Shown here: positions 42,723-48,851 of the stretch, one piece after another
Numbering within the stretch: position 1 is the first letter of the stretch
How the letters are laid out: the number at the start of each line of letters is the position of its first letter
Source: a virus
Direction: 5' to 3' (one strand)
Length of the DNA stretch: 64,000 nt
IMG/VR virus record: IMGVR_UViG_3300031885_000004
Coordinates: 1 to 64,000 of that record
Program-made: the position numbers and the translations under genes
The notes under the pieces: generated by a model
Database searches by the model: none
What the model was told of the DNA's origin: nothing
The model's input: the letters and a program-made list of their open reading frames with translations, nothing else

Positions 42723-44135
42723 ATGGAAGATGTCAGAACACCAGACGCAATAGATGATATAGAGATTAAATATCCAGGACCAAAAGATTTGGTGCATCTG
42801 CACTCACATACTATATTTTCAGCTCTTGATGGTATTGCATCACCAGAAGATTATATGAAAAGGTGCGGAGAACTTGGTATGTCAGCTATTGCCATAACCG
42901 ATCATGGGTGTCTTGCATCTTTCCCAGACGCTTATTTTGCGGCCAAAACATATAAGATAAAATTCATACCAGGATGTGAGATATATTATAATGATCACCA
43001 CAATGAACTACAGGAATTCCAAAAAAGTGGTAATAAATGGTCATCTTTGAAATTGTTGGACCTAGAAAAATATGAATTATTACGCAGGCATAGACACGTA
43101 ACTGTTTTGTCTAAAAACCAAGTTGGGTATAAAAATTTAATCCATATGACTACCAATGCATGGGAAATTGGCCATTATTATAAACCAAGAATCTGGATGG
43201 ATATACTTGATAGCCATAAAGACGGGCTAATTATTCTTAGTGGGTGTATGAATGGTCCGGTATGTCACGAGATAAGGGCAGCACACGAATTAACCATTAA
43301 AGGCCAAAATTCGGAAGCAAGTAGGCATTTAGAGATGGCCAGACAGTGGTTAAATGATATGCGCGAAATATTTGGGAAGGACCTATATATTGAAATGCAA
43401 ATGCCGGGTAAAGACCTTGACGGGTCAATCCAAGCTTTCGCGACATGCGCGAGATGGTCTGATGAATTTGGCATAAAAGCCGTCATAACTAATGATTGCC
43501 ATTATATTCACAGACAAGACTTTGATGTTCAAAAATGCATGATGGCGGTTGACCAAAAAAAGACATTAGATGATCCTGAGCTATTCACCACCAATTCAAG
43601 CGAGCAATATTTTAAGAGCAGATCGCATCTTAGGGCTATATTCCACGAGCATGGCTATAATGCAGATGTTAGTCAGGCTAAATTTGAAGAAATTTGCGAT
43701 AACACTGTTGAAGCTGCAGAAAAATGCGATGGGTTTAAACCAGACCTATCACCAAAATTACCAGCCATTAAAAACGCTAGTGATAAACTAACAGTTTTAG
43801 TATTAAATGCTCTCAAGGATAAGGAGTTATATAATAGCCAGAAGAAATATGAAGTTGATGGAAAGATGGTCACCCATAAAGAGCAAGCCCTGATAGAATT
43901 AAGTCGGATCATCTCGAAAGGCTTCGCGCCATACTTTTTAGTGATTCGAGATTTAATACAATATTCTATTAATAGTGGATGGGATGTTGGTCCTGCCAGA
44001 GGTAGCGCTGGCGGATCATTGGTTTGTTTTCTAATCGGGATCCACGAGCTTGATCCATTAAAGTGGCACCTATCATTTAATAGGTTCATGTCGCCGTCTC
44101 GAGGCGGCAACATGCTGAAAGTATCAATGGAATAA
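42723..44135 (+). CDS. dnaE: DNA polymerase III alpha, N-terminal part (PHP domain)
   Basis: HLHSHT, AITDHG, YYKPRI, TNDCHY, GPARGSAGGSLV, LSFNRF. Confidence 0.92.
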   Translation: MEDVRTPDAIDDIEIKYPGPKDLVHLHSHTIFSALDGIASPEDYMKRCGELGMSAIAITDHGCLASFPDAYFAAKTYKIKFIPGCEIYYNDHHNELQEFQKSGNKWSSLKLLDLEKYELLRRHRHVTVLSKNQVGYKNLIHMTTNAWEIGHYYKPRIWMDILDSHKDGLIILSGCMNGPVCHEIRAAHELTIKGQNSEASRHLEMARQWLNDMREIFGKDLYIEMQMPGKDLDGSIQAFATCARWSDEFGIKAVITNDCHYIHRQDFDVQKCMMAVDQKKTLDDPELFTTNSSEQYFKSRSHLRAIFHEHGYNADVSQAKFEEICDNTVEAAEKCDGFKPDLSPKLPAIKNASDKLTVLVLNALKDKELYNSQKKYEVDGKMVTHKEQALIELSRIISKGFAPYFLVIRDLIQYSINSGWDVGPARGSAGGSLVCFLIGIHELDPLKWHLSFNRFMSPSRGGNMLKVSME

Positions 44136-44560
44136 TGTATAAAGAAATTGACCAGCTGCTTAGAAGAGGATTTTGCGCCATTAGTATAATGGCTGATCCA
44201 GATGGATCATATAAAGATTCAAATGAAGTATGGGGCGAATCATATGTTTATATCAGCATTACACATAAGCAATATACGTCAGAACTAAGGTTTTTGTTTA
44301 GGTCGATTGGTTTCACACAAACCTGTGATACATTACGAAAATTAGTCAAAATGTATGATGATCGAAAAGGTGATGTGTGGGAGTTATCAAACCAGAAGAG
44401 AATACCATTGAATTTGTTGCCAACCGATAAAATATTAATACAAGGAACCATTAATGGGCTTAAAATAGCTAGAGAAATTTTAGGATTAACTATCCATGAC
44501 CAAAGAGAAGTTAAGCCTACTCCGAGACCTGGTGGCCAAAGCCCTACATGCACAAGCTAA
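44135..44560 (+). CDS. hypothetical protein
   Basis: Coupled to the dnaE N-part. Confidence 0.6.
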   Translation: MYKEIDQLLRRGFCAISIMADPDGSYKDSNEVWGESYVYISITHKQYTSELRFLFRSIGFTQTCDTLRKLVKMYDDRKGDVWELSNQKRIPLNLLPTDKILIQGTINGLKIAREILGLTIHDQREVKPTPRPGGQSPTCTS

Positions 44561-44897
44561 CTACATACGCATAGTTGGAGACGACTTGCCAATTCGCGCT
44601 TATATTACACTATTTAAGTGGCCAGATGTAACAAGTAGCTTGGTGCTGGCATTGAACGACAATGAATCAGCAATTGATGTCGCGATTGACGATTTATCGG
44701 CCATAATTATTTGCACGCTAAGGCCATTAGCATTAACGTATGTTGATATTGCCAAAAATGCAATGGATAAAGATGCCGTCAGGGAGGAGATAAACTTATT
44801 ATCAAAATCGGGAAACATACATAGCTCAAGAGACCAATTAATTAAGATAATTAATGGCATCAGTGATGCCAACCATGGATTCCCACGAATAATTTAG
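44496..44897 (+). CDS. hypothetical protein
   Basis: 133-aa ORF. Confidence 0.6.
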   Translation: MTKEKLSLLRDLVAKALHAQANYIRIVGDDLPIRAYITLFKWPDVTSSLVLALNDNESAIDVAIDDLSAIIICTLRPLALTYVDIAKNAMDKDAVREEINLLSKSGNIHSSRDQLIKIINGISDANHGFPRII

Positions 44898-44907
44898 GAA
44901 TGTAAAC

Positions 44908-45267
44908 ATGAAAATTGAGACTGGTGGGATAGTCAGTAAAAAGACTGGGTCGAAGTTCGCTGTTATAATTAAGATAGGTAGTGAAATTAGATCGTATGTG
45001 CATGAAGTCAAATCAGATTCGACACTTAATTATGTTGAATTATTGGCGGTTAAATTTGCTTTACTTGGTTCGAATGTTACACCAATAATAATTTCAACAC
45101 CAAACGTCTATGTATGTGATATCTTAAGGCATGAGGGCGATAATTGGCTAAAACTGCCAAAATCAAATAAAGAACTAGTAGATGAAATCAGAAAGCTTAT
45201 AATAGAAAAGAATGCATCAATAACGTTCGAAAGAAACGAAGAAATTAGGAAACTGTGTAGCTCATGA
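44908..45267 (+). CDS. degenerate RNase H-like protein
   Basis: TLNYVELLAV and NKEL resemble RNase HI TNNxxELxA and NxDL. Confidence 0.55.
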   Translation: MKIETGGIVSKKTGSKFAVIIKIGSEIRSYVHEVKSDSTLNYVELLAVKFALLGSNVTPIIISTPNVYVCDILRHEGDNWLKLPKSNKELVDEIRKLIIEKNASITFERNEEIRKLCSS

Positions 45268-48200
45268 CGTGGAAGGAACTGAAAAGATTGGCGGCCAACA
45301 CCCTCGCCACGAGGTTTAAGGGTAGAACTACAGAATATACCGGAAGGTTAAGATATGAATTAGACCAAATAGAGTTACAGGGTGCTGAGGATTATTGGAT
45401 TGACCTATATGATAGTAAAAGAACGTTCGACACCAACCATAATGGGTTGGTATTTCCACTGCTTCTTGGGATAACCAGCATCAACCCAATAGAACGCAGC
45501 ATACCACATAATATTGTATATCAACCAGATTATCCAGACATTGATACTGACTTCCTACCGATAGCACGCGATCATATTAAAAAATATGCATCAAAACAAT
45601 ATGGTGAGGATCGCGTATGTAGTGTTGGGTTGTGGCAGACATATAAACCAAAGTTGGCGATAACAGACGTGTGTAGGGTAATGAAGATTGACCCAACAGA
45701 AGCGCAGAGGCTTACTAAAGAACTACCAGATGAATTCGACGATATGGATTTTGAAGCGGCATGTAATGCCTACCCGAATTTTAAGACATTTGCGGACAAT
45801 AACGACAGCGTAATCAAAATGTCGTATAGGCTAGTGAAATTAATTAGGTCCCAAGGAAGACATGCAGGTGGGTTAATAATATCAAGCGTACCAGTACGTG
45901 ATTATATTCCTCTTACTAAAAGCCCATCTGGACCAAAAGGGCAATGGACATCGGCGTGGACGGAAGGCAAAAGCACTCAACTGTCAAAATTTGGATTTAT
46001 AAAATTTGACATACTTGGCTTAACCAACCTTTTGCATATATGGATATGCAAACAGTTTATAAAGAAAAATCGCGGAGTTATAATCGATTGGGGCGATATG
46101 GACCCCGAGGTTGATAGGGCCGGGTGGGAAATATTGCCGGATGGCACCAAGAGCGCCATAAGTTTTAAGGACGACCTAGCGTTAGATATGGCCGATAAGA
46201 GAAGAGTAGAGACCATATTCCAATTTGAAACAGATCTCGCTAAAAGCATAATCCAAAAGGGGCATGGTGTAAAAAGTTTCTATGACATGGTTATTTATAC
46301 GTCTCTTGGTAGACCAGGACCTTTACCGCTGGTCAACGATTATGTTGCAAGAAGAGACGCCAAAAATGATGATTGGAAAACCAAAGAGGACCCTAAAATA
46401 GTAGAAATTTTATCAGACACTTACGGGATTATAGTTTTTCAGGAGCAACTAAGCAAGTTCTTCATCAAAATATGTGGATTCACAGTACCAGAAGCCGAAG
46501 CCGCGAGAAAGGCTGTAGCTAAGAAGTGGGCCGATCAACTAAAAAAGATCAAAGACAAGATGATTGCTGGGGCTACCAAAACAATCGGGCACGATAAGGC
46601 GGTTGAGTGGTGGGGTAAAATAGAGTCATTTGCTAGATATTGCTTCAATGCCTGCCTAGACGGCGACACGACCATTGTCAATCCAATAACATTAGAAAGG
46701 ACGACGATAGAACAATTATATCTAAATCCAAAGCCGTTCAAGCTGTTGTCATTTAATAATGGTGAACTAGTAGCCGACGATGTGGTCAATATACACTACA
46801 ATGGCATGCTGCCAATATATCAAGTTATGTTTAGTAATGGGCTTACGCAGAACGTGACTATTGGCCATAAATTTATGAATGTTTATGGCAACATGGAAAC
46901 TGTTAAGTCTCTCTTGAAGACCGGTCATGCAATCAAATATATAAGTGATAGCATGACTGGAGGAGAATATGTTTCACAAGCTAAATCTGCAAATAGAGAA
47001 AGAAGTGGTAAGGATGTACCAGGAGGGTGCATCATACAAAGAAATAAAAAACGACATAAGAGCATTTTCATCGGACGGAACGATAAGGAGAATAATAAAA
47101 AAGCATGGCGTACAGAGATCATTTATAACTCAAGCATCCAACAGTGTGAACCATTATTACTTTTCGAAGATAGATTCGCCAGAAAAGGCATATTGGATCG
47201 GGATGTTGATAGCAGATGGGTACGTTCACAACGGGAGGGGATATGTAAGTTTGCAGCTCAATTCGAAAGATCAATTGCTGGTGGAGCAATTTGGCCAAGA
47301 TATAAAAACACCAAGGAAGATGGTAATCTGCAAGAAACAGCGTGCTGGTCCGCAATCGAGGATATCAGCCAGCAGCAGGATGTTATTAGCGGACCTAAGC
47401 AAATATGGTGTGATTCAGGGAAAAGAAGGACGGGAGATAATGCCACGCATGCGGTTTATTTCCCATCTTCTGAGAGGGCTTATGGATGGAGACGGAACGA
47501 TTATCGTAAATGGCAAGGGATATCCTATGGTAAAATTTTGCGGATCTCCGAAAGTAGTAAAAGGATTCAGGGACGCGATAATCAAGCACTGCAGGGTAAG
47601 AGTGAGCAAGATAACAGAATATTCAGAGAGGATGAACGCTGTGGCGTGGTCTGGCCTAAAACAGTGCAAACCGATCCTGAGATATCTCTACAGGGGGGCA
47701 ACGAGATTCTTGGTAAGGAAGCAAATCGTAGCGGATGCTATATTAAGAGCATCAGATATATCGGAGTTAAGAGGACATATTCGCCAGAGATGAGATCTAT
47801 TCAGCACAATTACATAACCTCACCACAGGATGGTCAACCAATACAAGCAAATTCACATGCAATGGCTTATATAGTTATTACATTTAGGTGTTTGTGGTTG
47901 AAAGCCCACTATCCAACAGAATGGTGGGCATCGGTCATGACGAATTGCAAACGCGAAAAGTTGGTTAAGTATATGGGAATCGCTAGATCTGAGGGAGTGA
48001 AATTCGGCTCCCTTGACTACAACCAGCTTAGCCAGACTTTCTCGGTCAGCGGGGATACAATTACTTTGGGGTTAGAAAGCATTAAAGGCATTGGCGATAA
48101 AGCTGCATTAAAAGCGCAAGGCGACCGCGATTGCACCAGTTTTGATGAATTTGTGTCACAAGCATCGAAGAACAAAATAATATTTGAGCGGTTAATTAAA

Positions 48201-48851
48201 CTCGGCGCATTTGATAAATTACACCCAAATAGGAAAGCATTATGGAACTGGTATCTTTATAAATATGGATCTGGGAATGACACCAAGATCGTTAAAGAAG
48301 AAGTGGCGGCCAAATTAGCGTGGAGCGATGAGAATATTGCTAAAGAGAGGCTGAGACAGACTAAAGAATTTCTAGCCAATTATCCTAGGAAAAAGAAGAT
48401 ACCAGCTCATATAGAAAAATGGAAACCGAAAAACAATCCGACAATCCAACAATTCGAAGAAATGTTCGGAGATTTTTCATATGAGGAAAGGCTAAAATTT
48501 GAAAAGGAATATCTTGGATATTATTGGAGCTCGCCTCTTGGTATATATAATTGCGCCAACCAAACTATAGATGATGCTAGATCTACTGGGATTCTTGAGG
48601 CGGTGATTGATAGCATTGATACTAGGAGAGGCAAAAACGGAGCATTTAAACAATTAAATGTCACAGATGGTATTGAAATTGCCAAAGTAATGGTGTGGCC
48701 CGATGAACTTGCTATCAATGACGAGAATATATTCAAGGAAGGCATGGGAGTTAGAATGAGAGTATCTTGGAAAGAAGAATATTTGAGCTTTAACGTTAGA
48801 TCAGGCTCAATTGTATTGCCACTGGAGAAGAAGAATGCTGCTCCAATCTAA
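45264..48851 (+). CDS. dnaE: DNA polymerase III alpha, catalytic part, intein-containing
   Basis: PDIDTDF, HAGG, KFDILGL, RPGP, TYGIIVFQEQ, YCFNA|intein|SHAMAY, WLKAHYP. Confidence 0.93.
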   Translation: MTWKELKRLAANTLATRFKGRTTEYTGRLRYELDQIELQGAEDYWIDLYDSKRTFDTNHNGLVFPLLLGITSINPIERSIPHNIVYQPDYPDIDTDFLPIARDHIKKYASKQYGEDRVCSVGLWQTYKPKLAITDVCRVMKIDPTEAQRLTKELPDEFDDMDFEAACNAYPNFKTFADNNDSVIKMSYRLVKLIRSQGRHAGGLIISSVPVRDYIPLTKSPSGPKGQWTSAWTEGKSTQLSKFGFIKFDILGLTNLLHIWICKQFIKKNRGVIIDWGDMDPEVDRAGWEILPDGTKSAISFKDDLALDMADKRRVETIFQFETDLAKSIIQKGHGVKSFYDMVIYTSLGRPGPLPLVNDYVARRDAKNDDWKTKEDPKIVEILSDTYGIIVFQEQLSKFFIKICGFTVPEAEAARKAVAKKWADQLKKIKDKMIAGATKTIGHDKAVEWWGKIESFARYCFNACLDGDTTIVNPITLERTTIEQLYLNPKPFKLLSFNNGELVADDVVNIHYNGMLPIYQVMFSNGLTQNVTIGHKFMNVYGNMETVKSLLKTGHAIKYISDSMTGGEYVSQAKSANRERSGKDVPGGCIIQRNKKRHKSIFIGRNDKENNKKAWRTEIIYNSSIQQCEPLLLFEDRFARKGILDRDVDSRWVRSQREGICKFAAQFERSIAGGAIWPRYKNTKEDGNLQETACWSAIEDISQQQDVISGPKQIWCDSGKRRTGDNATHAVYFPSSERAYGWRRNDYRKWQGISYGKILRISESSKRIQGRDNQALQGKSEQDNRIFREDERCGVVWPKTVQTDPEISLQGGNEILGKEANRSGCYIKSIRYIGVKRTYSPEMRSIQHNYITSPQDGQPIQANSHAMAYIVITFRCLWLKAHYPTEWWASVMTNCKREKLVKYMGIARSEGVKFGSLDYNQLSQTFSVSGDTITLGLESIKGIGDKAALKAQGDRDCTSFDEFVSQASKNKIIFERLIKLGAFDKLHPNRKALWNWYLYKYGSGNDTKIVKEEVAAKLAWSDENIAKERLRQTKEFLANYPRKKKIPAHIEKWKPKNNPTIQQFEEMFGDFSYEERLKFEKEYLGYYWSSPLGIYNCANQTIDDARSTGILEAVIDSIDTRRGKNGAFKQLNVTDGIEIAKVMVWPDELAINDENIFKEGMGVRMRVSWKEEYLSFNVRSGSIVLPLEKKNAAPI
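46653..47852 (+). mobile_element. intein (400 aa) in DnaE
   Basis: Starts CLDGDT, block B VTIGHKF, ends HNY...IQAN followed by Ser; removal restores YCFNASHAMAY. Confidence 0.88.
46969..47793 (+). CDS. LAGLIDADG homing endonuclease nested in the +1 frame of the intein
   Basis: AYWIGMLIADG and LRGLMDGDG motifs; GGAGGAG RBS before the ATG. Confidence 0.85.
   Translation: MFHKLNLQIEKEVVRMYQEGASYKEIKNDIRAFSSDGTIRRIIKKHGVQRSFITQASNSVNHYYFSKIDSPEKAYWIGMLIADGYVHNGRGYVSLQLNSKDQLLVEQFGQDIKTPRKMVICKKQRAGPQSRISASSRMLLADLSKYGVIQGKEGREIMPRMRFISHLLRGLMDGDGTIIVNGKGYPMVKFCGSPKVVKGFRDAIIKHCRVRVSKITEYSERMNAVAWSGLKQCKPILRYLYRGATRFLVRKQIVADAILRASDISELRGHIRQR

Follow-up and report, generated by a model that had tools for sequence, protein, structure and literature searches.

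An out-of-frame LAGLIDADG endonuclease gene inside the DnaE intein of a probable jumbo phage

We analysed a 64,000-nucleotide stretch of viral DNA (positions 1 to 64,000 of IMG/VR virus record IMGVR_UViG_3300031885_000004; hereafter the window), in which the gene for a DnaE polymerase core is interrupted by an intein that is overlapped, on the same strand and in the +1 frame, by a LAGLIDADG homing endonuclease gene. The source is an 81.5 kb IMG/VR viral contig with a CheckV completeness of ~22%, and the phage is therefore probably an uncultured jumbo phage, known from sediment metagenomes; the intein-bearing stretch is contained in many sediment metagenome runs. The locus comprises the following features.

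45264 to 48851, + strand: DnaE core gene in the polymerase frame, 1195 codons including the intein, no stop anywhere; Pfam DNA_pol3_alpha, finger and HHH_6.
46653 to 47852, + strand: intein in the polymerase frame, 400 codons, Cys1 to Asn400 and then Ser+1.
46653 to 46946, + strand: N-terminal splicing subdomain, intein residues 1-98, blocks A and B; predicted local distance difference test (pLDDT) 77-93 in the AlphaFold2 model; top Foldseek matches are mini-inteins.
46921 to 46960, + strand: predicted RNA hairpin, with its 5' arm in the intein S/T-G-H-A codons and its 3' arm ending at the first two Shine-Dalgarno bases; minimum free energy -22.5 kcal/mol, z -4.0.
46947 to 47729, + strand: polymerase-frame spacer, intein residues 99-359; stop-free, poorly conserved, predicted unstructured (pLDDT 25-40), no Pfam match.
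46959 to 46965, + strand: Shine-Dalgarno-like GGAGGAG, 3 nt before the endonuclease ATG.
46969 to 47793, + strand: LAGLIDADG homing endonuclease gene, 274 codons, +1 frame relative to DnaE; its TGA lies inside the intein S-P-E-M codons.
47730 to 47852, + strand: C-terminal splicing subdomain, intein residues 360-400, blocks F and G; pLDDT 79-87; invariant G-x-K-x-x-Y-S-P-E-M...H-x-Y...N.

The intein interrupts the conserved DnaE motif FNx/SHxxAY (FNA/SHAMAY in the window; the slash marks the junction) and carries in the polymerase frame both of the splicing halves that the original prediction had placed there, with CLDGDT at the start, T-I-G-H in block B, H-N-Y, and I-Q-A-N at the end before Ser. 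Its N-terminal Cys nucleophile, block B T-x-x-H and C-terminal Asn followed by Ser+1 are those of class-1 inteins, and C1, T69, H72 and N400 are unchanged throughout eight intein homologues. The penultimate residue of block G, His in the class-1 pattern, is Ala, as had been read correctly from the sequence at the outset; this is a trait of the family, in which relatives end in H-[A/R/K]-N followed by S, and the window ends in Q-A-N, with Q replacing the His of most relatives. An AlphaFold2 model built from an eight-sequence alignment was confident for intein residues 1-98 and 360-400 (pLDDT 77-93) and gave residues 99-359 a pLDDT of 25-40. Foldseek matched the confident part to the Mtu RecA, Npu DnaE and Ssp DnaB mini-inteins (E 1e-6, target TM ~0.6, root-mean-square deviation ~2 Å), and on this model the flanking halves are predicted to form a HINT fold. 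The insert between them has no Pfam match, in keeping with the earlier remark that the central codons show no motif in this frame, and contains fewer hydrophobic residues and more Arg and polar residues than the exteins; a functional in-frame domain within it was considered and rejected. That the 1195-codon frame has stayed open in several lineages suggests that the intein is removed by protein splicing.

No stop interrupts the polymerase frame across 45264-48851; the +1 frame is open at 46957-47790 only, with stops spaced ~30 nt apart elsewhere, and the third frame is closed by many stops. The claim that the +1 frame at 46969-47793 encodes a complete LAGLIDADG protein with two motifs is borne out by profile searches, in which the open reading frame (ORF) matched Pfam LAGLIDADG_3 (31.7 bits, cut-off 22.5) and, over residues 8-260, PHROG 4645 'endonuclease' (1e-44). 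The motifs GMLIADG (D83) and GLMDGDG (D173, D175) are invariant over 17 homologues, and the endonuclease profile matches the solved LAGLIDADG enzymes 2dch (1e-9), I-AniI (1.6e-8) and I-HjeMI. Homology to free-standing or intron-encoded phage LAGLIDADG genes extends over the full length (residues 8-260), including a helix-turn-helix (HTH)-like N-terminal extension. Over its last ~63 nt (~20 codons) the gene extends into the structured C-terminal splicing region, and this overlap is dual-coding, with both frames constrained.

A search of a large protein database with the polymerase-frame intein recovered three DnaE proteins with an equally long insert (P0003, P0004 and P0005) and three with a mini-intein at the same site (P0006-P0008); both groups share C1, T-x-x-H, G-x-K-x-x-Y-S-P-E-M, H-x-Y and the terminal N/SH. 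Comparison at the DNA level covered the window, L082 (a 371 kb contig, the source of P0004) and L087, while P0003 and P0005 were compared as protein only. L082 and L087 each hold a +1 ORF, of 273-277 codons, that ends at the same TGA within the S-P-E-M codons. In an alignment with 14 free-standing homologues, the three overprinted genes, i.e. those of the window, L082 and L087, keep all invariant residues, including D83, K152, D173, D175 and G176, and the HTH-like extension is kept in all three. For P0003 and P0005, a back-translation test gave scores of 383 and 350 (positive control P0004, 374; null 30 +/- 5), so that their polymerase-frame sequences appear compatible with a +1 endonuclease homologue. 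Searches for related loci seeded with P0002 alone and with P0003 found nothing. One of the mini-intein homologues, P0008, has two extra insertions of ~70 and ~30 residues (alignment columns 81-155 and 533-566).

The double openness leaves a clear trace in codon choice. A T at the third position of an endonuclease codon creates a polymerase-frame stop if the next codon begins with AA, AG or GA, and T is absent from all 82 of these at-risk junctions in the window endonuclease, compared with 48 of 191 other codons. The same avoidance is seen in L082 (0/83 at-risk junctions vs 69/189 elsewhere) and L087 (0/78 vs 58/198), and it is missing from the 14 free-standing homologues that served as a control, in which 504 of 1406 at-risk junctions carry T. 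Synonymous resampling of the gene produced a mean of 21 polymerase-frame stops with the codon usage of the window and 11 when its own codons were shuffled, and not one of 20000 resamples was stop-free. These 14 belong to a set of 24 more distant endonuclease homologues on viral contigs, all ordinary genes in which the other same-strand frames are open for just 4-51 codons. These results confirm the initial view that two frames open over 825 nt in an AT-rich genome would be unlikely without selection, although the term AT-rich applies only moderately, the G+C content of the window being 42%.

The two frames also differ in how they have diverged. Between the window and L082, divergence at the three codon positions of the endonuclease is 0.39/0.25/0.59 (amino-acid identity 53.5%), the same pattern as in the exteins (0.37/0.29/0.66), whereas the overlap read in the polymerase frame shows an inverted pattern (0.60/0.37/0.28; identity 26.5%). 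Among the loci, identity ranges from 53 to 78% in the endonuclease frame and from 23 to 51% in the polymerase-frame insert, and the endonuclease is conserved at least as well as the exteins in all three pairwise comparisons; for L082 and L087, identity is 78% in the endonuclease, 72% and 56% in the exteins and 51% in the polymerase-frame insert. Coding periodicity thus follows the +1 frame and is inverted in the polymerase frame, which answers the proposal that homologous inteins be compared for frame-specific selection: purifying selection acts on the endonuclease frame and not on the host frame.

The start region of the endonuclease gene is arranged similarly in the three loci. The GGAGGAG that had been taken for a ribosome-binding site is present 3 nt before the ATG of the window, and L082 has GGAG 6 nt and L087 GAGG 11 nt before the ATG. 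At every one of the three loci the ATG is preceded, at a distance of 1-4 codons, by an in-frame TGA (46954-46956 in the window). Across them the hairpin touches or covers the Shine-Dalgarno site, and at two of the loci, the window (z -4.0) and L087 (z -3.4), it is much more stable than shuffled sequences. When the three loci were aligned, 90% of cells pair, compared with 17-47% in slid controls, and two pairs are changed on both sides. The hairpin is possibly conserved, and a regulatory role for it is a hypothesis. For endonuclease genes that fracture their hosts, Dassa et al. 2009 (PMC2677866) report an upstream hairpin in 15 of 16, and they cite a case of ribosome-binding-site sequestration in phage Aeh1.

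We also observed that the hairpin loop ATCAAATATATAAG (46932-46945), which encodes the intein residues I-K-Y-I, is identical in the window, L082 and L087 despite ~50% protein identity, and that this identity includes four synonymous third positions. A role of the loop as a phage promoter element was not supported and the idea was dropped, since AAATATATAAG has 7 matches with at most one mismatch (3 +/- 1.9 expected) and none is placed like a promoter. The candidate TATAAATA was likewise set aside, showing a mild enrichment (11 vs 5.4) and not occurring at the endonuclease start. A scan for sigma-70 promoters and terminators found fewer sites than in shuffled sequences.

The same DnaE insertion site occurs in several other states. 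It is empty in 79 of 80 related phage DnaE loci checked, and the closest intein-less alleles read uninterrupted through the junction as FNK/SH (L002) and FNV/SH (L007). A scan for the invariant C-terminal block identified fractured DnaE genes on three viral contigs (L084-L086): a first ORF contains the N-extein and intein-N and then stops, a middle ORF of 520 codons matches PHROG 559 and 3339 (HNH / homing endonuclease, 1e-76), and a last ORF, newly started at the intein-C block, overlaps the tail of the middle ORF. The arrangement is that described by Dassa et al. 2009 (PMC2677866). DnaE of the window is not fractured in this sense, since the polymerase frame is continuous, with no stop after intein-N and no new intein-C ORF. 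An N-extein tree intermixes the overprinted, mini and empty alleles, with the mini-intein allele P0007 as sister of the overprinted L087 (support 100/99), the empty L002 as sister of P0005 (99/97) and the empty L007 as sister of the window and P0003 (84/89). Such a patchy distribution would be the expected trace of a mobile element subject to gain, endonuclease loss and intein loss. The junction FNK/SH, as found in L002, is a candidate cleavage target of the endonuclease.

L086 has, in addition, a second split intein, in its PHP-domain gene (reverse strand, oriented 2-1635), which reads ...GPRG/CSIPTEKV... and then ...SSN/SAGGS, with a 339-codon cysteine-rich ORF between the halves. Endonuclease genes thus interrupt DnaE of L086 in two places.

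Based on these observations, we consider it very likely that the window encodes a non-canonical intein of a jumbo-phage DnaE, in which a split mini-intein encloses a complete, separately translated +1 LAGLIDADG gene with its own start. In the polymerase frame, class-1 mini-intein halves would flank ~260 codons whose sole role is to stay stop-free; DnaE would be translated straight through, and the HINT halves would fold around a floppy loop and splice themselves out to leave an intact polymerase. The endonuclease would be made separately by internal initiation at its own ATG, and could cut intein-less DnaE alleles at FNK/SH in co-infecting phages, upon which the whole cassette of intein and gene would be copied in. 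The start hairpin, which pairs intein codons with the region before the start, may limit or time endonuclease initiation. The original prediction, that a free-standing endonuclease gene invaded a mini-intein out of frame and that the host frame was purged of stops, gains support from the full-length homology to free-standing genes, the gene's own ATG and Shine-Dalgarno site, the existence of mini-intein versions and the avoidance of T.

Several observations weigh against this interpretation. The intein lacks both the penultimate His and a His two residues earlier (Q in the window), and its polymerase-frame sequence goes unrecognised by Pfam. A shallow alignment lies behind the low pLDDT of the insert, and the genuine endonuclease also folded poorly when modelled from a two-sequence alignment (pLDDT 49). 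In L087 the Shine-Dalgarno motif is poorly spaced from the ATG (11 nt). L082 has only a weak hairpin (z 0.24), and the covariation score of the hairpin, which is drawn from three sequences, was reached by 117 of 500 shuffles. Inteins without a penultimate His are known to splice.

Since the source is a metagenome-assembled contig, two compensating indels introduced by assembly or sequencing might have concealed a normal in-frame endonuclease domain. Such an artefact would leave both the stop-free polymerase frame over 825 nt and the absence of T from 82 at-risk junctions unexplained, and the same frame relation occurs in L082 and L087, which come from other samples and differ by ~50% in protein sequence. 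The check for compensating indels proposed at the outset, here made on assembled contigs, found none: in Logan assemblies of four sediment runs, the region 46400-48100 has no substitutions and no indels. Two of these runs were not flagged as possible sources, and the contigs from these two span both ends of the +1 ORF. The artefact is thus effectively refuted. An ancient frameshift is a more serious alternative, though an unlikely one, in which a canonical in-frame LAGLIDADG intein had its endonuclease domain shifted by two compensating indels and gained a start of its own later. The endonuclease does sit at the canonical insertion point between the splicing halves, and indels that move endonucleases between frames have been discussed by Gosselin et al. 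(bioRxiv 10.1101/2025.01.02.630785). However, its match to free-standing or intron-encoded phage endonucleases is full-length and includes an HTH-like extension that a domain internal to an intein would not need, an in-frame stop lies just before the ATG in all three loci, the relatives recovered include no in-frame version at the DnaE site, and a different free-standing endonuclease has fractured the gene at this very site, showing that invasion occurs there.

It is very improbable that the endonuclease ORF is an inactive relic, held open as a by-product of constraint on the polymerase frame and leaving a de facto mini-intein. The mini-intein derivatives demonstrate that the endonuclease can be lost, and the first AlphaFold2 model of the ORF was poor, but the unconstrained frame is that of the polymerase, and the +1 frame has normal coding periodicity and is conserved as well as the exteins. 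Moreover, all catalytic and structural invariant residues are kept in three lineages, in which 274 codons would hardly stay open by chance. Programmed ribosomal frameshifting, by which the endonuclease would be made as part of the polymerase precursor, has hardly any probability in our view and was rejected. Both ORFs lie on the same strand and presumably on one mRNA, and a stable hairpin occurs just upstream, yet the +1 TGA at 46954-46956, four codons before the ATG (one or two codons in the relatives), leaves ribosomes next to no room to change frame. That short interval lacks a slippery heptamer, the ATG and the Shine-Dalgarno site are conserved, and an open downstream polymerase frame would be needless if ribosomes left it.

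An extension of this reading is possible, though on present evidence doubtful. The DnaE site may retain all outcomes of invasion, namely empty, mini, overprinted but contiguous, and fractured, with the overprinted form being a stable rather than a transient state and endonuclease translation being gated by the hairpin between the S/T-G-H-A codons and the ribosome-binding region. If so, endonuclease output would be tied to ribosome traffic on the polymerase mRNA, or to the form of that transcript.

In the wider surroundings of the intein, DnaE of the window is divided over two genes across 42723-45267, a PHP-domain gene and the core gene that starts at 45264, with three small ORFs between them, one of which has a weak RNase H-like match (E 0.003). 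The upstream gene, which provides context and lies outside the intein, is as follows.

42723 to 44135, + strand: PHP domain and first part of DnaE; Pfam PHP 1.6e-39, DNA_pol3_alpha 8.6e-24.

DnaE is likewise encoded in two genes with small ORFs between them in L082, L002 and L007. A megablast of the gene against phage records returned no match.

Some relatives of the endonuclease were found in other settings. P0009, a 272-residue relative with 51% identity on a 1.15 kb JGI contig, bears the source name 'DNA-binding transcriptional regulator WhiA', is probably a misnamed LAGLIDADG homing endonuclease, and may be a further copy of the DnaE intein on a contig too short to reveal it. More distant homologues lie within ORFs of 713-738 codons in L104, L105, L114 (2596-4809) and L109 (2809-4947); these ORFs also match HTH_23/HTH_28, with L104 showing a sub-threshold match to the start of an N6_N4 DNA methylase profile, and may be in-frame fusions or inteins of another host gene.

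The locus extends out-of-frame intein endonucleases to jumbo-phage DnaE, and its two proteins share ~800 bases, with selection acting on the sequence of one frame and, in the other, on nothing but the absence of stops. The presence of empty, mini, overprinted and split forms at one insertion site would allow a direct test of the model of Dassa et al. 2009 (PMC2677866), in which inteins evolve by gene breaking and domain acquisition. Genes of this kind would be systematically missed, since gene callers report the long polymerase ORF and pass over the endonuclease within it, and the source name of one relative is 'WhiA'. Mini-intein halves that apparently tolerate a floppy loop of ~260 residues may also interest protein engineers.

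The closest known counterpart is the cyanobacterial dnaX intein, whose LAGLIDADG gene lies out of frame on the same strand and for which a Shine-Dalgarno site, disorder of the in-frame region and a frame-specific ratio of nonsynonymous to synonymous substitution rates (dN/dS) have been described (Phillips, DeSimone & Gogarten, bioRxiv 10.64898/2026.09.14.751524). Like the window, it combines a same-strand overlapping LAGLIDADG ORF between the splicing halves, an upstream Shine-Dalgarno site and an in-frame region predicted to be disordered with frame-specific selection and the coexistence of mini-intein and empty alleles, and secondary invasion of a mini-intein is favoured for it too (bioRxiv 10.64898/2026.09.14.751524). 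It differs in its host gene and frame, being a '+2 ORF' in cyanobacterial dnaX, whereas the window has a +1 gene in an alpha-like core of jumbo-phage DnaE. In addition, the dnaX paper contains no explicit evidence of stop purging, no tail overlapping the structured C-terminal splicing region and no start hairpin, whereas the window shows the first two and has a predicted hairpin. The first proposal of an out-of-frame intein endonuclease is Gorbalenya 1998, as cited in that preprint (bioRxiv 10.64898/2026.09.14.751524). Among phages, the actinobacteriophage inteins with antisense LAGLIDADG, antisense Vsr-like and frame-3 endonuclease VII-like genes are attributed to invasion by free-standing endonuclease genes and are missed by annotation pipelines (Gosselin, Arsenault & Gogarten, bioRxiv 10.1101/2025.01.02.630785). 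They resemble the window in being phage inteins with the endonuclease encoded outside the intein frame, but their hosts are terminase, capsid, polymerase and ThyX genes, unlike the same-strand +1 LAGLIDADG gene in DnaE.

The fractured genes of Dassa et al. 2009 (PMC2677866) share with the window a free-standing endonuclease gene at the endonuclease site of the intein, an endonuclease 3' end that overlaps intein-C, a hairpin just before the endonuclease start and phage hosts, including DnaE. Their host frame is broken, whereas that of the window is unbroken, with no stop after intein-N and no new intein-C start, so that splicing would occur in cis; the overprinted state falls outside the outcomes drawn in that model, which are fracture or in-frame insertion only (PMC2677866). 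Canonical LAGLIDADG inteins such as VMA (7qss, 7qsu) and PI-PfuI (1dq3) have the same HINT fold and insertion point and presumably the same homing logic, but in them the endonuclease is a domain of the intein polypeptide, whereas in the window it would be a separate polypeptide, encoded in another frame and with an HTH-like N-terminal extension. The novelty implied by the original prediction was too high, as the layout was already present in the Gogarten-lab preprints and in Gorbalenya 1998 (as cited), and the intein of the window is a further member of a known, rare kind. What it adds is the host gene and phage group, the +1 frame relation, stop purging shown against a free-standing control, an endonuclease tail ending in the S-P-E-M codons, four coexisting states of one site and a possible start hairpin.

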